Positions 17,888 through 62,763 of a stretch of 64,000 nucleotides of DNA are shown here, one piece after another; position 1 is the first letter of the stretch; the number at the start of each line of letters is the position of its first letter. The position numbers and the translations under genes are program-made. Source of the stretch: Bacteroidales bacterium (lineage in GTDB: Bacteria; Bacteroidota; Bacteroidia; Bacteroidales; BM520); assembly GCA_028707815.1 (NCBI GenBank), contig JAQWAE010000010.1:1173-65172 (forward strand), read 5' to 3'. Under the pieces are notes generated by a model. The model did not search any database and was not told the DNA's origin. It saw nothing but the letters and a program-made list of their open reading frames with translations.

Positions 17888-20023
17888 TTATTCTTCTTCG
17901 CCTTGTTGTTCGGCGTATTCTTTTAGCAGGCGGTCTTGAACATCTGTCGGCACTTGACGATATTCGTTAAATTTCAGTGAATATGTAGCGCGTCCTGATG
18001 TCAAGGAGCTTAAAGTTGTTGCGTATCTGTTCATTTCAGCCAATGGAACTTGTGCGCGGATTTTCTGGAAACGACCTTCAGGGTCCATACCCATAACAAT
18101 ACCTCTACGATTTTGCAAGTCGGTCATAACGCCGCCCATCATATCTTCAGGTACTAACACTTCAACATCATAAACAGGTTCCATAATTTTTGGTCCTGCG
18201 TTTTTGAAAGCTTCTCTGAAGGCATTACGACCTGCGAGTTTAAATGCCATTTCGTTTGAATCAACAGGGTGCATTTTACCGTCATAGACATAAACCACGA
18301 TGTCACGAGCATAGGAGCCGGTTAGCGGACCTTGTTCCATACGTTCCATGATACCTTTTAATATTGCCGGCATAAAGCGGGCATCGATAGAGCCACCAAC
18401 AATACAATTGTGGAACATCAATCTGCCGCCCCAATCTAATTTATATTCGTCGGTTCCTCTTACAGGGAACTCTGTTGGGAATGTATATCCTTCAACATAA
18501 GGTTGTACCATCAAATGTACTTCACCAAACTGGCCGGCACCGCCGGATTGTTTTTTGTGACGATAGTTAGCTTTTGCAGTCTTAGTGATAGTTTCTCTGT
18601 ACGGTATTTTGCATGGGAAAAGTTCGATATCTATTTTGTTGATGTTGTTGAGATACCATTTCATTGTGTTGATGTGTAATTCGCCTAAACCGCTTACCAC
18701 CATCTGACGTAGCTCACGGCTGAAGCCGGCTTTTAATGTCGGGTCTGTTTTTTGTAAATCGTTTAAGGCTACGCCTAATTTTTCATCATCGCTACTATTT
18801 GCTGCTTTTATTGATGTAAAATATATTGGTTCCGGTATTTCAAACGGGGCGACTGTTCCTATATTTGACTTTGGACTTGCGAGTGTCTGATTTGTTCTAG
18901 AATCTCTAAGTTTTATAGTTGCTGCTATATCTCCTGCAACAACTTTTGCAACTTTTTGTCTATTTTTTCCGGCGACAACGTTAATTTGAGAAATTTTTTC
19001 CTTACCTTCGTTATTGGTGTTTACCAGTTCCATACCCTCTGATATTTCGCCACCGTATACTCTGAAATACGAAACTTCTCCCAGATGTGATTCTATGGAA
19101 GTTTTAAAAATATATGCGCAAGTAGGGTCTGTAGCTTTTGACGACAATGTTACATCCGCTGATGTAACGACAGGATTACCTTCATCAGGAGAAATTATGT
19201 TGTTGATTGCAAAATCAAGTAAGTAATCGACTCCCATATTTTGTTTTGCAGAGACGCATATCAACGGGAACAAATCACGATTTTTAATACTTAATTTAAG
19301 ACCTTTGGCAATATCTTCCGGAGAGAGCGTACCTTCTTCAAAGAATTTTTCCATAAGGGCTTCATCGCCTTCTGCGGCAGCTTCAACGAGGAAAGCTTTT
19401 AATTCTTCTGCTTTGGCAGCATTATCGCCTGTTAATTCTTCTACTGTAGCTAAGCCGCCGTCTTTGCCATATTTTAATAATTTATTGGAAAGGACATCTG
19501 CTATAGCATTGAAGCCAACACCTGCATTTACAGGAAATTGGAATGGTACTACTTTATTTCCAAAATCTTCTTTAAGTTCACGAAGCACTTCTTCATAATT
19601 AGCTTTTTCATGGTCTAACTGATTAACCACCAAAACTACCGGTGCACCGGTTTTAGAAAGCATCCTCCATTGCATTTCTGTACCGACTTCTATACCTTCT
19701 TGGGCATTGATAAGCATAAAGGCTGCGTCTGTAACTTTAGTAGACGCATATATTTCGCCCATATAATCAACAAAACCCGGGTTGTCGATAAAATTAATCT
19801 TATGATCTTTATACTCTGCATATAAAACAGTAGAACTTACAGAATTTAATTTTGCTAATTCTATTTCATGGTAATCGGAAACAGTATTTTTATCTTCAAT
19901 TGTTCCCCTGCGAGTAATAACACCACCTAATAATAACATGCTTTCTGACAAAGTGGTCTTTCCTGACTTAGCACCACCAACGATGTTGATGTTGCGTATC
20001 TTAGTAGTTTCGTAAACTTTCAT
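17888..20023 (-). CDS. Elongation factor G paralog with degenerate GTPase motifs
   Basis: It has the full EF-G five-domain length (711 aa) and EF-G-like domains II-V. G1 is GGAKSGKTT, G3 is DNPGF (canonical DTPGH) and G4 is NQLD (canonical NKxD). Confidence 0.85.
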   Translation of the reverse strand: MKVYETTKIRNINIVGGAKSGKTTLSESMLLLGGVITRRGTIEDKNTVSDYHEIELAKLNSVSSTVLYAEYKDHKINFIDNPGFVDYMGEIYASTKVTDAAFMLINAQEGIEVGTEMQWRMLSKTGAPVVLVVNQLDHEKANYEEVLRELKEDFGNKVVPFQFPVNAGVGFNAIADVLSNKLLKYGKDGGLATVEELTGDNAAKAEELKAFLVEAAAEGDEALMEKFFEEGTLSPEDIAKGLKLSIKNRDLFPLICVSAKQNMGVDYLLDFAINNIISPDEGNPVVTSADVTLSSKATDPTCAYIFKTSIESHLGEVSYFRVYGGEISEGMELVNTNNEGKEKISQINVVAGKNRQKVAKVVAGDIAATIKLRDSRTNQTLASPKSNIGTVAPFEIPEPIYFTSIKAANSSDDEKLGVALNDLQKTDPTLKAGFSRELRQMVVSGLGELHINTMKWYLNNINKIDIELFPCKIPYRETITKTAKANYRHKKQSGGAGQFGEVHLMVQPYVEGYTFPTEFPVRGTDEYKLDWGGRLMFHNCIVGGSIDARFMPAILKGIMERMEQGPLTGSYARDIVVYVYDGKMHPVDSNEMAFKLAGRNAFREAFKNAGPKIMEPVYDVEVLVPEDMMGGVMTDLQNRRGIVMGMDPEGRFQKIRAQVPLAEMNRYATTLSSLTSGRATYSLKFNEYRQVPTDVQDRLLKEYAEQQGEEE

Positions 20024-23797: not shown

Positions 23798-26458
23798 ATG
23801 GTAACATCATATCGCATACGGGCAAATTATCCCGATTATTTTATAGTAAAACTATATGTTGACATGGGACGTTCTGTTTTTGAGAAAGAGAAAGAATACG
23901 AAGGCAACAAACCAGGAACAGTCATATACACTTATAGATTAGAAGATGGCACAACGGTAACGGCAGAAATAGCTCCGCGTTGGTATGATATTTTTTATCT
24001 TTTAAATAACGATTATGATAAATCGAAGCATTATATTGATTTATTGATACAAGAGCAAGAATATGACAGTTCAACGGCGGCGGAATTAGAAGGATTACGC
24101 ATAGAGATGTATGACAGATGTACTAATTACATAAAAGAACATCCGTTATATGATGACGATTTAGTTGTAACGACTTTAACTGAGCAGGATTTCACCAAAG
24201 AATTTATCAGTCACAAGGGCAATGTTTTATTGGCGTTGACGAAGTTATGTTATCCTGTGCCCGATTTTTGTATTCTTTCGGCTAAAGCATATCAGCAGGA
24301 GGATCAATCAGAATTATTAAAAAAGGCGATATATAATCTTGAGGTTATGACTGAGTCGTTTTTAGGTTCTGCCACCAAGCCGTTAATTTTTGCTTTGAGG
24401 AGTGCGATGCCGCAATACATACCCGGATTGATGCCCACTTTATTAAATGTCGGTGTTACAAGCAATGTTCACAATGGTTTGATAAAGATATATGATGAAA
24501 ACATGGCTAACAGAATATATCTCAACACATTACATGGGATATTTGATATTTTATCCATAGACATTACAGAAAAGAAGAAGGACATAGAATTAAATATTGC
24601 AGAGCAACGCCAACGAATAAAAGCTATGGAGAAAAACATCCATAAATGCAATGGTGGTTCACAAATAATAGAAGATGCTTTTGCTCAAGTATTAGCCTAC
24701 GTCAATTACATCAGAGATTTCTATAAAAACAATCAGGATTTATTATCAACATTTATGCAGGGCAAGATAGCATATCCGGCTTTGATAATGCAGAAGATGG
24801 TATGGACAATAGGTAACGACTATTCATATCCGGGAGTTTTATACAGCAGGCATAGTAGGACAGGATTAGGTTGTCAGATAGAGAGTTACAGAAATATTTT
24901 CGGTGAGGAGATAATGACCGGCGACATTCAATCAAATGATATTGAATTTTTCGACAGAGAAGAAGTCAAGGATAGTTATCCTGCGATATATCACTTTGCT
25001 CCGTTATTACCAAACTTAGAGCGCCGTTTTAAGTCACCTGTGACTATTGAATTTGGGGTAGAGACAAGGCAAAACATAACAGAGAAGCAAAATGTAGCGA
25101 GTTTATTTGCGGTTTTACAACTTAATGAATCAGAGCTTACTGGCAGAGCCGCTCTATTATCATCAATAAACATGTACGAAAAAGAGTTTATTGGCAAAGA
25201 AGATGTAGTTGCATTAGTAAGACCATATCATTTACGTCAGATTTTTTCTGACAGCATAGACAGCGAATCTATGAATCAATTAGTTTTTTTCTCTAAGGCA
25301 GTAAATGTATTACCGAGGACGGCAGTAACGGTAAGGATATATTTCAACACAGCTAATGCGACAAATGCCAAGCAGTTAGGAGTTCCCGTATGTCTTTGCA
25401 AAGAAAGATTTTTACCGGAAGACACTATAATTTTAAGTGAGATGGATGCCATTTTGAGTATGACGCCGGCGGCGATACATGTTGTCACAGCTTGTCGCGG
25501 TTATGGTATTCCTGCATTTTTAAATTTAGAATCTTTTGGAGTTAGTTTATCAGACAATAAATTAATCAACAAAGATGGTTTAGAGATAAAAGAAGGTGAT
25601 TGGATTACGTTATCAAGCAGGCAACAAACGATATTCATAGGGAAGGCGAATTACAAGCCGGCAAGATTTATGGATTATTTAAACGGCAAGCAATTTTTGA
25701 TGGATGAAAAAGAAGAAAAAGTTTTTATTTTTCTGAAAGAAGCTTATCAGAAGTATAATCAGATAGTTACATCAACAAAGGTAAATTACATCACAGACGT
25801 TAACACTCTGACACGATTAATAAAATACGACTTACAAGATCATCCGGAGACAGCTGCAGAGATAGCGAACAATTGGTTTGCGGGCAACAGCGCGAAATAT
25901 TTAAGGCAGGTTCTTGAAAGCAAAATGGGTTCTCATCAAGACCAGTCAAGAGTGTTCAATTTATTGGACAACGGCAAGAAGATTGAGTTTTTTAAGAATG
26001 CCGTGGCAGTAAGTACAGAAGAGCAATTATCAGGATTAACAGCCGGTGCGTTTATATTAGGGCGTTTTATTGCGCAGCCTCTGCCAAGTACTTTCTGGGA
26101 GGCTTTTGATGATAAAGAGATAGCTTTTATGCTCAACGAGTATGTTTTATATGAAAAATACATCCAAGTTCTCAATGAGGTTGGAGAGACTAAACTGACA
26201 AAAGTCCATTCAAAGATAGTATCAGAAGGTCTTACAAATTGGGAGCTTAACAATTTCAGCATAGAAGATTTTTTATCATTAAAAAAGACAAATCCCAATT
26301 GGAATAAAATAGCGGAAGATGCGAAGCATCTTCTTGCGCCGCAAAAGAATACAGGAATGTTAATCGAGAAACTATCTTGTCCATACAAAGATTTATTTGA
26401 CATGTCCAAGTCATGGAATGTAGAGATGTTAAAAAAGGCAGGTATATATGAGTGGTAA
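23798..26458 (+). CDS. PPDK-like protein: ATP-grasp nucleotide-binding domain plus PEP-utilizer phosphohistidine swivel domain. The PEP/pyruvate TIM barrel is replaced by an unassigned helical region of about 270 aa.
   Basis: SHKGNVLLALTKLCYPVPDF resembles GGKGxNLAEM..G.PVPPGF. FALRSAMPQYIPGLMPTLLNVG resembles SVRSGA..SMPGMMDTxLNLG. MTPAAIHVVTACRGYGIPAF resembles GGMTSHAAVVARGMGxxCV, and anchoring on RGxG aligns the His. IKEGDWITLSS resembles (L)KEGDxISxDG. I found no GIGLxRTEHMF-type barrel motif. Confidence 0.7.
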   Translation: MVTSYRIRANYPDYFIVKLYVDMGRSVFEKEKEYEGNKPGTVIYTYRLEDGTTVTAEIAPRWYDIFYLLNNDYDKSKHYIDLLIQEQEYDSSTAAELEGLRIEMYDRCTNYIKEHPLYDDDLVVTTLTEQDFTKEFISHKGNVLLALTKLCYPVPDFCILSAKAYQQEDQSELLKKAIYNLEVMTESFLGSATKPLIFALRSAMPQYIPGLMPTLLNVGVTSNVHNGLIKIYDENMANRIYLNTLHGIFDILSIDITEKKKDIELNIAEQRQRIKAMEKNIHKCNGGSQIIEDAFAQVLAYVNYIRDFYKNNQDLLSTFMQGKIAYPALIMQKMVWTIGNDYSYPGVLYSRHSRTGLGCQIESYRNIFGEEIMTGDIQSNDIEFFDREEVKDSYPAIYHFAPLLPNLERRFKSPVTIEFGVETRQNITEKQNVASLFAVLQLNESELTGRAALLSSINMYEKEFIGKEDVVALVRPYHLRQIFSDSIDSESMNQLVFFSKAVNVLPRTAVTVRIYFNTANATNAKQLGVPVCLCKERFLPEDTIILSEMDAILSMTPAAIHVVTACRGYGIPAFLNLESFGVSLSDNKLINKDGLEIKEGDWITLSSRQQTIFIGKANYKPARFMDYLNGKQFLMDEKEEKVFIFLKEAYQKYNQIVTSTKVNYITDVNTLTRLIKYDLQDHPETAAEIANNWFAGNSAKYLRQVLESKMGSHQDQSRVFNLLDNGKKIEFFKNAVAVSTEEQLSGLTAGAFILGRFIAQPLPSTFWEAFDDKEIAFMLNEYVLYEKYIQVLNEVGETKLTKVHSKIVSEGLTNWELNNFSIEDFLSLKKTNPNWNKIAEDAKHLLAPQKNTGMLIEKLSCPYKDLFDMSKSWNVEMLKKAGIYEW

Positions 26459-27383
26459 TCAGCAGAATATTAAAGCGCCTTACATTTTTGACATTAAAAG
26501 ATATTCCATAAATGACGGACCGGGCATACGCACGACAGTTTTTTTCAAAGGTTGTAAATTAGACTGTATTTGGTGTCATAATCCGGAGGGCAAAAGCACT
26601 TTGCAGGAGAAAATGTATACTGTCAACAAGTGTATCAGATGTTTAAGATGTGTCAGCATTTGTCCGGAGAAAGCTTTAGTCACTTCTGAAACAGGAATTG
26701 TATTAGACAACAATTTATGCAAGATGTGCGGCAGATGTGTAGCGGCATGTCCTACAAAAGCCATGGAGTTTGTAGGCAACAAATTTAGCATTGATTATTT
26801 AGTAGAAGAGATAAAAAAGGACATTCCATTTTATGACAAATCAGGTGGCGGAATGACTGTAAGTGGCGGAGACCCGATACTTTATGTTGATTTTTTAAAA
26901 GAGTTATTAATCAGATGCGGTGAAGAAAAGATTCATCGGGCGATAGATACGACTATATTAGCAAGTCCGCAAACAATAAAAGAGCTGTCGGAGCATTGCG
27001 AGTTATTTTTAATAGATTTAAAGATGATGGATGCCGACAAGCACAAAAAACACACAGGAGTTTCCAATGTAGCCATATTATCTAACATCAAGTTATTGGC
27101 AGACAGCGGAATAGACTTTATCATCAGGATACCTCTTATCAAAGGTGTCAATGCTGACAGCGAAAATCTGACAGAGTCGGCAAAATTCTTATCCTCATTA
27201 CCGTGGCGGTTAAAGAAAGTCAACTTGCTACCCTACCACGACATTGGCAAGGGGAAACATCAGCGGTTGCAGACTACATATAATGCGGAAAAAATAGTTA
27301 TGATGTCACCAAGTGCCGAAGAGATTGAACAGGCTATCGGCATTTTCGGCAGTTATGGAATAACGGCGGTACAAGGGGGATAG
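26448..27383 (+). CDS. Glycyl-radical-enzyme activating protein family radical SAM enzyme (PFL-AE type with a two-ferredoxin insert)
   Basis: It has DGPGIRTTVFFKGCKLDCIWCHNPE (CX3CX2C), two 4Fe-4S ferredoxin motifs (CIRCLRCVSICP and CKMCGRCVAACP), a GGGMTVSGGDP SAM-binding motif, and DTT / DLK motifs. Its ATG at 26448 overlaps the upstream stop (26456-26458). Confidence 0.88.
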   Translation: MSGNQQNIKAPYIFDIKRYSINDGPGIRTTVFFKGCKLDCIWCHNPEGKSTLQEKMYTVNKCIRCLRCVSICPEKALVTSETGIVLDNNLCKMCGRCVAACPTKAMEFVGNKFSIDYLVEEIKKDIPFYDKSGGGMTVSGGDPILYVDFLKELLIRCGEEKIHRAIDTTILASPQTIKELSEHCELFLIDLKMMDADKHKKHTGVSNVAILSNIKLLADSGIDFIIRIPLIKGVNADSENLTESAKFLSSLPWRLKKVNLLPYHDIGKGKHQRLQTTYNAEKIVMMSPSAEEIEQAIGIFGSYGITAVQGG

Positions 27384-27386
27384 GAG

Positions 27387-28217
27387 TTAATATTTGAAGC
27401 TCGCTGCTGCCCAATTGTTTCTATTGATAACGTGGTCAAAAGTGAGACCATTTTTCAGAGCGCATTCCTTAATAGCCTCAACATCAAAATCATAGAAGCC
27501 ACTCATTATCAAGATGCCGCCTTTTTCAAGGACATTTACATATTGTGGCATGTCTTCAAGTAAAATATTTCTATTGATATTAGCAATTATGATATCGAAC
27601 TTAATATCTTTAAGCAAGGCGGCATCACCCAAAAAAGTTTCAATAATGTCGGCATTATTTCTTTGGACATTTTCCAAAGTATTTTCGTAAGCCCATTCGT
27701 CATTATCGATAGCCCAGACTTTAGTTGCGCCTTTTTTTACAGCGAGGATAGCGAGAACGCCGGTTCCGCAGCCCATATCCAAAACAGCCTTATCTTTGCA
27801 ATCTATATTCAGCAACTCGGAGATAATCTGGTAAGTTGTCTCATGATGAGCCGTACCAAACGACATCTTAGGCTGTATAACGATGTCATAATCAACGCCT
27901 TCTATATTTTTGTGAAATGGAGCATGTACGTAGCATTTGTTGTCAACAAGCACCGGCTCATAATTTTCTTCCCATTTTTCGTTCCAATCTTCGTCAGGAC
28001 AATCAATATATGTATATGAAAACGGAATTGTATCTTTCAGCTGTTCTTTTAAGTCGACAATAGCCTCTTCAGAGAAAAGTTCAGTTTTCACATAAGCCTT
28101 TAAGACTGTCGGCTCTTCGTTCATAAAGCTCTCATAATCAAGTTCTGCCAAAAAAGCAACAAGGATGTCGCTATCATCTTCTTTGTTTACAACACAAGTT
28201 AGTTCAGTATATTTCAT
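27387..28217 (-). CDS. prmA: Ribosomal protein L11 methyltransferase
   Basis: It has FGTAHHETT and the SAM-binding DMGCGTGVLAI. The ATG at 28217 is preferred over the GTG at 28223. Confidence 0.88.
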   Translation of the reverse strand: MKYTELTCVVNKEDDSDILVAFLAELDYESFMNEEPTVLKAYVKTELFSEEAIVDLKEQLKDTIPFSYTYIDCPDEDWNEKWEENYEPVLVDNKCYVHAPFHKNIEGVDYDIVIQPKMSFGTAHHETTYQIISELLNIDCKDKAVLDMGCGTGVLAILAVKKGATKVWAIDNDEWAYENTLENVQRNNADIIETFLGDAALLKDIKFDIIIANINRNILLEDMPQYVNVLEKGGILIMSGFYDFDVEAIKECALKNGLTFDHVINRNNWAAASFKY

Positions 28218-28240
28218 ATTCACATATTTTATTGATGCAG

Positions 28241-28348: not shown

Positions 28349-28894
28349 ATGACAAGAAGAAAGATTTTATTAGCTGTTGACTTGCAAAAAGATTTTATAG
28401 ACGGTGCGCTCACAGTTCCTGATGCTTACAAAGTAATTCCTATCATCAACGACATAAAAAAGAACTTTGACTTAGTATATTTCACTCTTGACTGGCATCC
28501 TGCCGACCATTGTTCTTTCAAGTCACATGGTGGTCCGTGGAACACGCACTGTGTTCATCATACGGCGGGAGCATGTTTACCTGACAGTGTTTTTGAGGGT
28601 CTCAAAGAAAATCAAATACGTTTTATCTTAAAAGACAGCATATCCGATAGAATGGAATATGGTGCATTTTCTGAAATTACGCCTCAGATAGAGAGTCTCT
28701 TTACTAAAGATGATGAAGTTGTTGTATGTGGAATAGCGGCAGAGTATTGCGTTTTAGAGACACTTAAAAATCTGTTCAGGCTCAGCTGTAAAATCGGCTT
28801 CACGGTAAAGGTATTTCTCAAAGGCACAGCACGCTTTGACAGCTACGACACCGTCTTGGCGTTTATGAAAGAGAACGGCATTGAGGAGTATTAG
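28349..28894 (+). CDS. Isochorismatase-family hydrolase (nicotinamidase/pyrazinamidase-like)
   Basis: It has the catalytic Asp context LLAVDLQKDF and the Cys nucleophile context VVVCGIAAEYCV. The metal-binding DWHP..H region is typical of PncA. Confidence 0.75.
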   Translation: MTRRKILLAVDLQKDFIDGALTVPDAYKVIPIINDIKKNFDLVYFTLDWHPADHCSFKSHGGPWNTHCVHHTAGACLPDSVFEGLKENQIRFILKDSISDRMEYGAFSEITPQIESLFTKDDEVVVCGIAAEYCVLETLKNLFRLSCKIGFTVKVFLKGTARFDSYDTVLAFMKENGIEEY

Positions 28895-30009
28895 AGATTC
28901 ATACAATACAGATAATCTTTCGATAATATTTCCGCACATTTTTGAGCTATATTTTTAATTGCAGCAAATCCCTTTTCTCGAGGGATACGAATACTTTCGC
29001 CTACTATAAGCATATCTTCTACACTTGGATTTCCATGATTGTTTACAGTAGTGGCATGTTCTCCATTATATCCTTTACTGCATAGGGTTAAATCGTAAGC
29101 AGGAGCTAATCCCCAAACGCCGTCTCGACAAACAAAGCTGAAGTTTTTCGCATGGTCATCTTTATTATCTGAGAGTACATTAAATACCATACGACTAAAC
29201 ACCTCATCAACTTGTTTCGGGTCTTGTGTCAGATAACCTGTAATATGGAGCAAAGTTCTATAATCCATTGCAGGATAAGATATTGATTCATTCAAGATAG
29301 CAGCAGCGGTAGCTACGTGCAACCGCTCACCGTTTTCAATATCAAAGCGTTTGCTTGCAAAATATTTTCTGTCCATCAGTTTAAAGTCCGGTACGGTAAT
29401 ACCACATTGACGAGCTAATTCATTATATTTGTATTCCATTGTTCCCATATTTAATGGGTCGTAAGTATGTCTAAATTTCACTATCCAATCGCCATCAGCA
29501 TCTTGGAACAGGCATTTAGGACAACAGCCGCCGGAATTACCGCTGTTATAATATAAAATATCTTCGCCATTATCTACCTTTTCCGACAAAACATCTAAAG
29601 CCATTTGCTGCAAAGTATCGAGTTCAAGCGGTGCTGTTTCTTCATCAAAATGGACTTCAGGAAGATAGCACAAAGCCCCCATGCCGGAAGTACCGACAAT
29701 ACTCAGTCGTTGCAGCGGTGTCAGTTCAATCTCGCCTATACCCTGTTTTCTCAGCATCCTATTTAAAAGATAACGTCCATAACCATCCGGCAGACTATCT
29801 TCAAAAATGCCGAAATTTCCTTCAAAAGGCTCCGGCTTGGCAATAAACAAATCAGATTTCAACGGCAGCTCTAAAGGAGAGATAGAAAATCCGTCTGACA
29901 GCCATTCTTTATCATATTGAAAAACGCATAATCTATTATCAGGCGTCATGCTAAGGGACCCAACCGGACGATTATGATATGTAACAGACAATTTATTTAT
30001 TGATTTCAT
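28891..30009 (-). CDS. hipA: HipA-family serine/threonine kinase toxin (type II toxin-antitoxin)
   Basis: It has the N-terminal HipA coupling domain (LSVTYHNRPVGSLS..VFQYDKEW) and the catalytic loop DNKDDHAKNFSF. Confidence 0.85.
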   Translation of the reverse strand: MKSINKLSVTYHNRPVGSLSMTPDNRLCVFQYDKEWLSDGFSISPLELPLKSDLFIAKPEPFEGNFGIFEDSLPDGYGRYLLNRMLRKQGIGEIELTPLQRLSIVGTSGMGALCYLPEVHFDEETAPLELDTLQQMALDVLSEKVDNGEDILYYNSGNSGGCCPKCLFQDADGDWIVKFRHTYDPLNMGTMEYKYNELARQCGITVPDFKLMDRKYFASKRFDIENGERLHVATAAAILNESISYPAMDYRTLLHITGYLTQDPKQVDEVFSRMVFNVLSDNKDDHAKNFSFVCRDGVWGLAPAYDLTLCSKGYNGEHATTVNNHGNPSVEDMLIVGESIRIPREKGFAAIKNIAQKCAEILSKDYLYCMNL

Positions 30010-30343
30010 TGCGTCCTTTTTTTCTATTTTTATTTTTATTAATAGTTTCGAGTTCCTCCATAGTATCGAAGAGAGGTTGTGAAAGCAAAACTTTTATATC
30101 TTTGGCATAGCCTAATGCTTTTGCGAGTGCTACAAATGACGACAAAGAGATAGTATGTTTCTGTTCAAATTTGGCGATTGTAGGCGTAGGCACTCCGCTA
30201 AGCGTGGTAAGAGCTTCGCGGGAAAGTCCTTTTTCCAACCTGCGTTTTCTAACATTATCGGCAAGTATTGCCAACAACTCTTCCGGCGTATCCATATCCA
30301 AATTATAAAGCAATGGCATATTATTGTATTTAATAAATGACAA
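29993..30343 (-). CDS. hipB: XRE-family helix-turn-helix protein, HipB-like antitoxin
   Basis: The HTH is LSREALTTLSGVPTPTIAKFEQ. It overlaps hipA by 17 nt and has a basic C-terminal tail. The start may be an internal Met (MPLLY or MDTPEE). Confidence 0.75.
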   Translation of the reverse strand: MSFIKYNNMPLLYNLDMDTPEELLAILADNVRKRRLEKGLSREALTTLSGVPTPTIAKFEQKHTISLSSFVALAKALGYAKDIKVLLSQPLFDTMEELETINKNKNRKKGRNEINK

Positions 30344-59562: not shown

Positions 59563-62500
59563 ATGTTAAGTATTCGTTCAACATTACTTTTTATCTTATT
59601 GGCAGTGTGTATTAATATTAATGTTAAAGCACAATTATACATCAACGAGATAATGCCATGTAATGTTTCATCTATACTTGATGACACAGAAAATTACAGC
59701 GGTTGGCTTGAAGTATACAATGCAGGAGGCAGTGCTGTAACTCTCACCGGATATTATTTTACGGACATTTTAACTAATTTGACTCAATATAAAATAGTTG
59801 CTGACGTAACGATAGCTGCAGGCGGTTATTCTACTTTTTGGTTTGGTAGAAATTCTTTAAGTTCAAATCATGTAGATTTCAAATTAAAGCCTGAAGGAGG
59901 ATTAATAGTATTAGTTAATTCTTCGCAGCAAGTAGTTTCGCAGATGCTTTATCCGGCGCAGTATCCCGACATATCGTACGGTTGTACTTCAGACGGTGGA
60001 AGCACAAGCAACTATTTTGTATCACACAGCTTTGGTGTCACCAACAACAACTCGCAGACGGCAGACAGTCCCTGCGCCGCGCCAAGTTTTTCGCTCGAAG
60101 GCGGCTTTTACTCATCAACAGTCTATATATCAATGAGTTGTTCTATATCTGGAGCAAATATTTACTATACACTTGATGGTTCTGAGCCAACAGAAGCAAG
60201 CACGGCTTATTCTTCGCCAATAACAGTAACCTCCGGTATCCGCACAATACGCGCAAGAACATTTGCCGGCGGCTATCTGCCAAGCGACATTGTAACTCAG
60301 ACGTTTTTTATAAACTCACGACAGCCCGAAATACACGCTATATCAATAGTTACCGATGATGACAATCTTGTCAACCTCAACGGAGACATTGACAGACCGG
60401 TTAATATTGAATTGTATTATGATGGCACCCAGCAGCTAAATAAACGACTTGACATTTCATCTGAAACCGATTTAGCCGACAATCCGACAGTAAAAGCCAT
60501 CAAACTCATTGCCGACAAAAAGTACGGCAGCAACCGTATTCTTTACGAATTTTTTGCCTCGAAGCCCGGAAGAAGATATAAAAGTTTATTACTCAGAAAT
60601 TCAGGTCAAGACTCTCAACACTCGATGTTGTTAGACGGCATGAGCCAAACACTTGCCACGGCATTAGTTGACATTGATTGCCAAGGTTATTTGCCGGCAA
60701 CTGTTTACATCAACGGTAATTATTGTGGCATGATTAACATACGAGAAAGGAACAACCGCTATTTTGCAGACTCTAACTATGGTATAGACGAAGAAAGTCT
60801 TTACTTTGTCGAAATTCCATACGCCGGCGCAACTTATCTCGAAGGTCTGACAGGCTCTGTTGATGAATTTGAATCTATGTATGATTATATTACCGGCAAC
60901 AACATGAGCAACAGCTCTAATTATCAACAGGCATGCCAATTAATAGACATAGACGCTTTCATCAATTACACCGTTTTACAGCTTTTCGTTTACAGTCTTG
61001 AAGACTGGCCTACAAACAATTACAAAGCATATAAAACTATTACGGACGGAAAATGGCGGTGGATTACCATAGACCTCGACTTGGGATTTAACATTGACAA
61101 CCTAAATGCAGACGCAATATCCGAATTATTAAACGGCACTTCGTGGCATTCCGAACTTGTAAACTCTTTATTACAAAACGCAGATTTCAAGCAACAGTTT
61201 ATCGACATGTTCAGCGTATACCTCGGTAGCATTTTTTCATCGGACAATATAGACAAAGTTGTAGAAGAAACGGCGGGCGTTATAAGAGACGAGTTTGATT
61301 ATCATGCTCAATATCAATCTTTTACAAACAACTTTGAAACTTATATCTCTAATTTTAAAACTTTTGGTTCTCAAAGAGCCGACAAGGTATACAGTCATCT
61401 TCAATCTCAATTTTCGCTTGGCTCACCAAAAAGCATTACAATTACTACAAATTTAGAAGATTACTATAATCAACAAGATGAATTACAAGGTATTAGGATT
61501 TTCATCAACGGCATTGCCGTACCGACCAACACTTTCTCCGGCAAATACTATCAAAATTCAACTGTAAGCCTGTCGGCGGTTGCTCCTAAGGGCTACACTT
61601 TCAATAATTGGACAGATGTGTCGGGAAATATTGTTTCTACTAATGCTGATTATGAATTTACGATTACCCAAGATGTCAACTTGACAGCAAACTTTAAGTC
61701 ATCTGAAAATTACAGTTTATACAAGCTATATATCAATGAGGTATGCGCTTCGAACAGTATTTTCATTGACAACTATGATGGTCGTGATGATTGGATTGAG
61801 ATATACAACGGCAGCAATTTCGCCATTGACCTTGGTGGCATGTATATCAGTGACGACAGAGAAGATTTAACCAAGTGTCAGATTCCGGAAGGTTATTCTG
61901 ATGAGACTACGATAGAGCCATACAGTTACAAGATTATCTGGGCGGATTCGGAGCCGGAACAGGGACCGCTGCATGCAGAGTTCAACCTGTCTTCTACGAA
62001 AGCTGAAACCGTGAGCTTGTCGATGGCAATAAACGGCAGTTTAAAAGTCATTGACAGTCTGACGTACGCATTGGGAGCAAACACTTTCGGACGTTTTCCC
62101 GATGGAAGCACGAAGCTTTATTCTTTCTACAACGCCTCATTCGGCAACATGAATATTTCAAATTCCGCAGACGAATTTTGTTGCACCGACACCTATTTTC
62201 CCAATAACAACGGCGAACCATATATGTCGCTCAGCAACTACATTTTAGACTTTGGCACTGATGAGCGAGTATTAGGTCTGTATATCAACAACTTAAGCAA
62301 CAGCGAAACTTTGAATTGGGTTAGTAGCGGCAACAGCGAAAGTTACGAGTTGTCTGCAACATCAGGCACAATTTCGCCACAAGGCAGAGAATATGTAGAA
62401 ATCACCATCGACAGAGAAAATTTCTCAGATGATTTGAATGAAGTCGTTTATTTCACCGGTGGCGATATAACCTTAGGATTGACCATAATAGCGACTAATG

Positions 62501-62763
62501 AAATCATAGGAATAGAAGAAAACGAAATAGAAAACATCAAGATTTATCCAAATCCGGCAGACGACTATTTTTACATCCAAATACCTGTAGATGAAAATCT
62601 TACTATGCAAACATATAATTTGATGGGAAGATTGATGAAGGAAACTAAATTCAATGAAGGAGGAATATATAGAGAAGACATCAGCAATTTACGTTCCGGC
62701 ATATATATAATAAAATTAACATCTACGACTATTTCAAGAAGTATAAAGCTGATAATCAAATAA
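59563..62763 (+). CDS. CotH kinase family protein with lamin-tail (LTD) domains and a T9SS C-terminal sorting domain
   Basis: It has two LTD-like segments (LYINEIMPCN..WLEVYNAG..LTGYYFTD and LYINEVCASN..WIEIYNGS..LGGMYISDD) and a CotH core (LLLRNSGQDSQHSML, VYINGNYCGMINIRER, WRWITIDLDLGF). The C-terminus is IKIYPNPADDYFYIQ..GIYIIKL. Confidence 0.82.
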   Translation: MLSIRSTLLFILLAVCININVKAQLYINEIMPCNVSSILDDTENYSGWLEVYNAGGSAVTLTGYYFTDILTNLTQYKIVADVTIAAGGYSTFWFGRNSLSSNHVDFKLKPEGGLIVLVNSSQQVVSQMLYPAQYPDISYGCTSDGGSTSNYFVSHSFGVTNNNSQTADSPCAAPSFSLEGGFYSSTVYISMSCSISGANIYYTLDGSEPTEASTAYSSPITVTSGIRTIRARTFAGGYLPSDIVTQTFFINSRQPEIHAISIVTDDDNLVNLNGDIDRPVNIELYYDGTQQLNKRLDISSETDLADNPTVKAIKLIADKKYGSNRILYEFFASKPGRRYKSLLLRNSGQDSQHSMLLDGMSQTLATALVDIDCQGYLPATVYINGNYCGMINIRERNNRYFADSNYGIDEESLYFVEIPYAGATYLEGLTGSVDEFESMYDYITGNNMSNSSNYQQACQLIDIDAFINYTVLQLFVYSLEDWPTNNYKAYKTITDGKWRWITIDLDLGFNIDNLNADAISELLNGTSWHSELVNSLLQNADFKQQFIDMFSVYLGSIFSSDNIDKVVEETAGVIRDEFDYHAQYQSFTNNFETYISNFKTFGSQRADKVYSHLQSQFSLGSPKSITITTNLEDYYNQQDELQGIRIFINGIAVPTNTFSGKYYQNSTVSLSAVAPKGYTFNNWTDVSGNIVSTNADYEFTITQDVNLTANFKSSENYSLYKLYINEVCASNSIFIDNYDGRDDWIEIYNGSNFAIDLGGMYISDDREDLTKCQIPEGYSDETTIEPYSYKIIWADSEPEQGPLHAEFNLSSTKAETVSLSMAINGSLKVIDSLTYALGANTFGRFPDGSTKLYSFYNASFGNMNISNSADEFCCTDTYFPNNNGEPYMSLSNYILDFGTDERVLGLYINNLSNSETLNWVSSGNSESYELSATSGTISPQGREYVEITIDRENFSDDLNEVVYFTGGDITLGLTIIATNEIIGIEENEIENIKIYPNPADDYFYIQIPVDENLTMQTYNLMGRLMKETKFNEGGIYREDISNLRSGIYIIKLTSTTISRSIKLIIK

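Follow-up and report, generated by a model that had tools for sequence, protein, structure and literature searches.

In several phosphotransfer enzymes, an ATP-grasp domain is combined with a phosphohistidine domain that moves as a carrier and with an acceptor domain that can be exchanged (PMC4844700, PMC12167813). VadK of Mycobacterium tuberculosis (Rv1127c) is a derivative of pyruvate phosphate dikinase (PPDK) that lacks the phosphoenolpyruvate (PEP)/pyruvate domain; given ATP and Mg2+, it phosphorylates itself, and the methylcitrate cycle is under its control (PMC13400623). HypD (trans-4-hydroxy-L-proline dehydratase), a glycyl radical enzyme (GRE), is common in gut Bacteroidetes (PMC6219649). 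The locus analyzed here lies in a 64,000-nucleotide stretch of DNA (hereafter, the window) from a Bacteroidales bacterium (assembly GCA_028707815.1, contig JAQWAE010000010.1, positions 1,173 to 65,172), in which the gene of an 886-amino-acid (aa) PPDK-like protein overlaps the gene of a GRE activase by 11 nucleotides (nt).

A preliminary description of the window, made from its letters and open reading frames (ORFs), had proposed that the activase is regulated or served by the phosphotransfer protein, or that a radical S-adenosylmethionine (SAM) enzyme has been recruited to act on or with a PPDK-like scaffold. The comparisons reported below favor another explanation, with a probability of about 0.65: the two genes are functionally unrelated and were adjoined by a species-specific rearrangement, which placed a normal HypD-type activase behind a member of a PPDK-derived phosphotransfer family.

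Conservation of the gene pair

Conservation of the pairing was assessed in 80 species-level loci carrying a PPDK-like gene (49–60% identity), with flanking sequence to a maximum of 10 kb either way where the contig allowed. The tblastn search with the activase as a query gave no match in any of the 80 loci, the window serving as the positive control, and the same loci gave no match to HypD. When the flanking ORFs were clustered de novo, every neighbor was confined to at most 32 of the 80 loci. Those that recurred were housekeeping genes (ruvX, def, a TPR lipoprotein gene, dapF, ligA, ilvE, and dnaX), which were syntenic only within subclades. The neighbor genes of the window itself were syntenic in none of the related loci, so the insertion history cannot be reconstructed by synteny.

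Since the pairing is absent from the related genomes (0/80), functional coupling of the two genes is unsupported, and neither scenario of the preliminary description was borne out. That description had itself named two observations that together would speak against its proposals, namely absence of the pairing from related genomes and an orphan GRE elsewhere accounting for the activase; the former is what was found. The PPDK-like family does not need an activase, as all 80 related species lack one within 10 kb. A literature search returned no paper describing a PPDK-like/activase pairing.

The junction itself is genuine. It was recovered in identical form and in the same context from at least five NCBI metagenome-assembled genomes (MAGs), as well as from ENA, JGI, and Logan assemblies, all of the same species, which rules out an assembly chimera. 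The pair is thus real but young, being shared by many assemblies, yet found solely in one species; roughly 60 contigs carry the activase. Both ORFs and their overlap (start codon ATG at 26448, stop codon at 26456-26458) were as first described.

The PPDK-like protein and its family

The 886-aa protein is a PPDK homologue through its ATP-grasp and phosphohistidine swivel domains only. The NCBIfam PPDK model TIGR01828 aligned residues 133-629 with profile positions 14-517 of 865 (119.5 bits, E = 1.2e-34), its cutoff of 843 bits not being reached. The short PPDK/VadK-type model NF004531 scored 73.7 bits, below its cutoff of 456. No match was obtained in a Pfam scan of the protein, PF02896 (the PEP/pyruvate barrel) included. 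A family profile built from 16 members matched every solved PPDK in the PDB (E ~1e-23 to 5e-29, best 1dik/2dik), with query positions 140-619 corresponding to PPDK 20-515. The alignments bear out the earlier proposal that the match extends through the nucleotide-binding and swivel domains.

Catalytic residues were mapped in the numbering of C. symbiosum PPDK. The segment PAAIHVVTACRGYG of the 886-aa protein aligned with GMTSHAAVVARGMG of PPDK, placing His561 on the catalytic His455, in the register that had been proposed from the sequence. Other retained residues were K22 (K140), R92 (R201), G101 (G210), E323 (E418), and Q335 (Q441), and in the swivel domain also R461 (R567). Three positions were altered: D321 is T416, R337 is N443, and the regulatory T453 is A559. 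In the swivel domain, PAAIHVVTACRGYGIPA was invariant within the close family.

The terminal regions have no counterpart in PPDK. Residues 1-132 were modeled by AlphaFold2 (AF2) as a small alpha/beta unit with long helices, with a predicted local distance difference test score (pLDDT) of ~80-90. Residues 620-886 alone, modeled with an alignment of 67 sequences, formed helices only, with no beta strands (pLDDT 86.7, predicted template modeling score [pTM] 0.79). Foldseek found nothing significant for this C-terminal domain in the PDB (best E = 0.26, template modeling [TM] score at most 0.31), and profile searches of residues 1-132 and of the C-terminal domain against the PDB and Pfam likewise gave nothing significant. 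A helical domain of no known fold is confidently predicted where PPDK has its PEP/pyruvate TIM barrel, as the preliminary description had supposed from about 270 aa of apparently helical sequence.

That the protein is instead an ordinary PPDK with a PEP/pyruvate barrel diverged past recognition is scarcely credible. Its length resembles that of PPDK (~874 aa), its domains come in the same order, and the JGI annotation reads 'pyruvate, orthophosphate dikinase'. The similarity in total length, however, is due to ~130 extra N-terminal residues, and the TIGR01828 score falls far below its cutoff. PF02896 was absent from all scanned family members, whereas true PPDKs in the same search have it. The last 267 residues were confidently modeled as helices with no beta/alpha alternation, and Foldseek retrieved neither a TIM barrel nor any other significant match. 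The all-helical model, matching nothing in the PDB or Pfam, indicates that the barrel was replaced rather than diverged, and a diverged TIM barrel was excluded as a candidate on this high-confidence model and the Foldseek result.

The family to which the protein belongs is widespread, unannotated, and PPDK-derived, and is represented by no Pfam or NCBIfam model. A word-indexed search yielded 770 homologue clusters, the 120 best of which comprised proteins of ~860-910 aa with no precomputed Pfam domain; where named, these were Bacteroidales MAG proteins called 'hypothetical'. Among the GTDB species representatives, 253 stretches encode a PPDK-like relative. In an exhaustive search of 50%-identity representatives, 73 matches fell below E = 1e-30, and true PPDKs appeared only at ~1e-19. 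Across 25 full-length members (22-50% identity), the invariant residues included K140, G141, R201, P209, G210, T214, E418, Q441, H478, Q481, and H561, and in the C-terminal domain G711, H713, G755, and Y788. Judged from the alignment, a conserved nucleotide/Mg site and carrier His together with conserved polar residues in a new domain would be expected of an active phosphotransfer enzyme with a changed acceptor site.

The representative search also retrieved a 1550-aa protein (P0260), in which the entire PPDK-like architecture occurs twice in tandem, with the carrier His retained and RGYG lost in both halves. It was considered as a GRE fusion and rejected for this reason.

In comparison with PPDK (C. 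symbiosum 1DIK/1KBL), the window protein has a homologous ATP-grasp domain with its helical insert, a homologous swivel domain, and the same order of domains from the N- to the C-terminus, and it keeps the catalytic His and the equivalents of K22, R92, E323, and Q335. It differs in the all-alpha domain that takes the place of the TIM barrel, in the N-terminal addition, and in the substitutions at D321, R337, and T453. VadK also has lost the PEP/pyruvate domain while keeping the ATP-binding and His domains, but it is merely truncated, whereas the window protein has a conserved helical domain (265 residues past the His domain) and an N-terminal domain. These extra domains, and an NF004531 score below that of the PPDK model, mark it as a derivative independent of VadK.

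The full-length AF2 model (pLDDT 73) retrieved PPDKs in Foldseek (E ~1e-17 to 1e-23; 1kbl, 1e-23), followed by rifampin phosphotransferase (5hv1), PEP synthase (2ols), and HpeI (9goj). The ATP-grasp/His-swivel principle is shared with rifampin phosphotransferase (5HV1), PEP synthase (2OLS), the hydroxyphenylethanone kinase HpeHI (9GOJ), and glucan water dikinase. The acceptor domain of the window protein resembles none of theirs, and its domain order is that of PPDK, not that of rifampin phosphotransferase.

The PPDK-like family has a distant subfamily (22-27% identity to the window protein), found in one MAG each of Hodarchaeota and Saganbacteria and in further bacteria. In all three contexts examined (L092:241-5454, L093:5532-15487, and L094:5489-13994), its members adjoin atypical enolase-like proteins of 510-1201 aa. 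Enolase_C preceded Enolase_N in three of the four enolase-like proteins scanned, which looks like a circular permutation. A protein of ~260-307 aa was also found beside the subfamily members, fused to the enolase-like protein in L094. Further neighbors were PGK and GAPDH genes in one context, a canonical enolase gene in one, and a citrate synthase gene in one. No enolase-like link was seen for P0393, a more distant relative (30% identical to the subfamily query), and no enolase-like gene was found near the Bacteroidales PPDK-like members. For the distant subfamily only, these neighborhoods weakly suggest a role at the PEP/2-phosphoglycerate node.

The activase and the search for its partner

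The downstream gene product was identified as a GRE-activating enzyme, as originally read. It passed TIGR02494 with 324 bits (cutoff 174) and has the CX3CX2C motif (C36/C40/C43) and both CX2CX2CX3C ferredoxin clusters (C62/C65/C68/C72 and C91/C94/C97/C101). The best specific model was NF043069, the HypD activase equivalog, with 347 bits, below the cutoff of 425. Three homologous activases from Bacteroidales scored 328-338 bits on this model, and two of the three were shown to be hypD-adjacent. The cutoff thus excludes the whole clade, and the score of the window activase is typical, given that hypD-adjacent homologues score only 328-338.

Its closest relatives (53-59% identity) were found in Parabacteroides, Massilibacteroides, Tannerellaceae, and Bacteroides. 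The activase lay directly downstream of a PFL-like/Gly_radical protein of 786-813 aa in 4/4 relative clusters examined, in line with the statement in the preliminary description that such activases usually sit beside a GRE of ~800 aa. Both GREs tested passed the HypD equivalog NF043068 (1167 and 1151 bits, cutoff 1100). Peptidases of the S9/DPP-IV or M24 Xaa-Pro type were seen near the hypD-activase pairs of relatives (L085:11888-14278, L086:11635-14049, and L096:5014-6387). Together with the S9 peptidase gene upstream of the PPDK-like gene in the window, they may faintly reflect an association of the activase with proline/hydroxyproline peptides.

No GRE was found in the window, as had been stated. 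The tblastn search of the 64 kb with a HypD query gave nothing below E = 1, and the glycine loop R[VIT]xG[FYW] was present in none of the window ORFs of at least 200 aa. A GRE was also absent from the 10 kb beyond the right end of the window, ~73 kb of the contig being covered in all. The 886-aa protein itself has no PFL-like (PF02901) or Gly_radical (PF01228) domain and no RVxG[FYW] loop. Its 'CRGYG' and 'LGRF' were considered as a cryptic glycyl-radical loop and rejected, as RGYG corresponds to the RGMG of all PPDKs and as the 80 species had no activase nearby.

Of 60 columns that are invariant in the 119 homologues compared, the window activase deviates in five (P37K, E125D, V136M, E142D, and L170I). 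P37K lies inside the CX3CX2C motif, turning GCPLxC into GCKLDC, and E142D turns the SAM-binding motif GGE into GGD. Among the positions that at least 95% of the homologues conserve, the window activase had seven changes; the median for the homologues (n = 119) was 0, and the highest count was 6. The deviation at 5 of 60 columns fits the most divergent sequence of the set and is not evidence of decay.

The window activase and the described HypD-activating enzymes (NF043069) or GRE activases (TIGR02494) thus have in common the radical SAM motif, the insert with two ferredoxin clusters, full-length similarity, and relatives beside hypD. The window activase differs from them in having a PPDK-like gene upstream instead of an adjoining GRE gene, a 9-residue N-terminal extension, GGD for GGE, and Lys for an invariant Pro.

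Gene order, alternative readings, and implications

The coordinates of the genes and domains are listed in Table 1. The end of the S9 peptidase ORF is separated from the start of the PPDK-like gene by 20 nt, and the stop codon of the activase from the end of the convergent prmA by 3 nt. No alternative ATG, GTG, or TTG start was found for the activase ahead of the conserved 'IFDIKRY'. The terminator scan gave no plus-strand terminator-like site between the S9 peptidase, PPDK-like, and activase genes; the counts in the promoter/terminator scan matched the shuffle expectation and are uninformative. As no such site separates them, the three genes plausibly form one transcript, and the S9 peptidase gene probably belongs to the same transcription unit as the PPDK-like gene.

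Table 1. Positions of the genes, domains, and overlap in the window
Feature	Position	Strand	Basis or remark
PPDK-like gene, 886 aa	23798..26458	+	ORF; homologous to PPDK over residues 133-629 alone
N-terminal domain, residues 1-132	23798..24193	+	No PPDK counterpart; PPDK alignment begins at ~133-140; conserved IRASYPNY, GNKPGTVIY, PPRWYD
ATP-grasp nucleotide-binding domain and linker helices, residues ~133-495	24194..25282	+	Aligned to PPDK 20-~390
Swivel phosphohistidine domain, residues ~496-620	25283..25657	+	His561 codon at 25478-25480
C-terminal domain, predicted all-alpha, residues 621-886	25658..26455	+	Predicted to replace the PEP/pyruvate TIM barrel
GRE activase gene, HypD-activase type, 311 aa	26448..27383	+	ORF; TIGR02494 and NF043069 scores, Cys ligands
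11-nt overlap of PPDK-like stop region and activase start	26448..26458	+	ATG 26448, TAA 26456-26458
S9-family peptidase gene, 837 aa	21264..23777	+	Tricorn_N and Peptidase_S9 matches; upstream of the PPDK-like gene
prmA (ribosomal protein L11 methyltransferase gene), convergent	27387..28223	-	PF06325 PrmA; bounds the unit

Three further features of the window were recorded. At 28891-30343 on the minus strand, a HipA-like kinase of 372 aa (Couple_hipA, HipA_C) and an overlapping upstream HTH_3 gene look like a HipBA-type toxin-antitoxin system. A 711-aa GTPase of the EF-G family is encoded at 17888-20023 on the minus strand, beside tatA and a rhomboid gene, at a distance from the region of ribosomal protein genes and rpoB/rpoC, and looks like an EF-G paralogue. 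At 59563-62763 on the plus strand, a gene for a secreted 1066-aa LTD/CotH/Por_Secre_tail protein is followed by two ORFs and then by VTC, DUF4956, and DUF2490 genes; this CotH-VTC cluster extends past the window end (to L090:13211-16642).

If the two genes are functionally unrelated, their products would work separately. The activase would use SAM and its [4Fe-4S] cluster to place a glycyl radical on a canonical GRE, which is no longer the upstream neighbor here and is presumed to be encoded elsewhere. In the PPDK-like protein, the ATP-grasp domain would phosphorylate His561 from ATP, the swivel domain would deliver the phosphoryl group to the C-terminal helical domain with its invariant Gly711-x-His713, Gly755, and Tyr788, and the group would then pass to an acceptor, which may be a small molecule or a protein. 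Such a relay would follow a dikinase or phosphohistidine mechanism like that of PPDK, PEP synthase, rifampin phosphotransferase, or VadK, and the activase would take no part in it.

Several points weigh against this account. A GRE displaced to another part of the genome is an assumption, made with ~73 kb of the contig covered. The 11-nt overlap and the lack of an intervening terminator make co-transcription of the PPDK-like and activase genes likely in this species, and the two are possibly also translationally coupled. The deviations of the activase from the invariant columns, GGE to GGD among them, could reflect drift toward another role or toward decay. ATP-dependent autophosphorylation of the PPDK-like protein is likewise inferred rather than certain, as two nucleotide-site residues are replaced (D321 by Thr and R337 by Asn), and residues 536-576, around the His loop, are of low confidence in the full-length AF2 model. 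We nevertheless consider it most likely that a hypD-like gene has been displaced to another part of the genome, with loss of the GRE as the main rival. In that rival, the cognate HypD-like GRE is gone, and the activase persists without a substrate, co-transcribed behind the PPDK-like gene, and will eventually decay. The ~73 kb free of a GRE, the loss of the upstream GRE that all four relatives have, and a number of changes at conserved positions above that of all 119 homologues, E142D and P37K included, would fit such a remnant. The activase ORF, however, is intact in every assembly and has kept all its cluster-ligand cysteines; most of the deviating residues are conservative, and a higher count is expected of the most divergent sequence in the set. 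Activases are also not always encoded beside their GREs. An orphaned activase is the less probable outcome, at roughly the level of a one-in-five chance.

A working relationship between the two products appears far less probable. The activase would then work on or with the PPDK-like protein or be controlled by it, and the two would make up a new two-component system in this lineage. The stability of the overlap in at least five MAGs and the lack of a GRE nearby would agree with such a recruitment, as would the fact that the 886-aa protein stands exactly where the canonical operon has its GRE and is of roughly the same size. The protein nevertheless has none of the domains or the loop of a GRE, its RGYG is merely the RGMG inherited from every PPDK, the activase is of the typical HypD type with no lineage-specific insertion, and the PPDK-like family occurs with no nearby activase in 80/80 related species. 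There is likewise very little to recommend the specific course of events in which a HypD-type activase lost its GRE, was captured by translational coupling to the PPDK-derived phosphohistidine protein, and now acts on that protein or is controlled by it. If true, a partnership of a radical SAM enzyme with a dikinase would have no described precedent and would be of a new kind; the comparative data, however, argue against it. Caution is needed when function is read from a gene overlap confined to one MAG lineage, as such an overlap is weak evidence.

Novelty would more probably lie in the PPDK-like family than in a capture of the activase. It is a tentative proposal, clearly short of an even chance, that the family is a new class of dikinases with an unfamiliar acceptor domain, working at the PEP/2-phosphoglycerate node; the enolase-like neighbors of the distant members give a concrete starting hypothesis for its function. 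The family represents a second, independent route by which PPDK lost its pyruvate barrel and acquired new domains, which extends the theme set by VadK. The PPDK-like proteins are core genes in uncultured rumen and gut Bacteroidales, and once their phospho-acceptor is identified, a missing piece of central metabolism or of regulation in these bacteria could be supplied.

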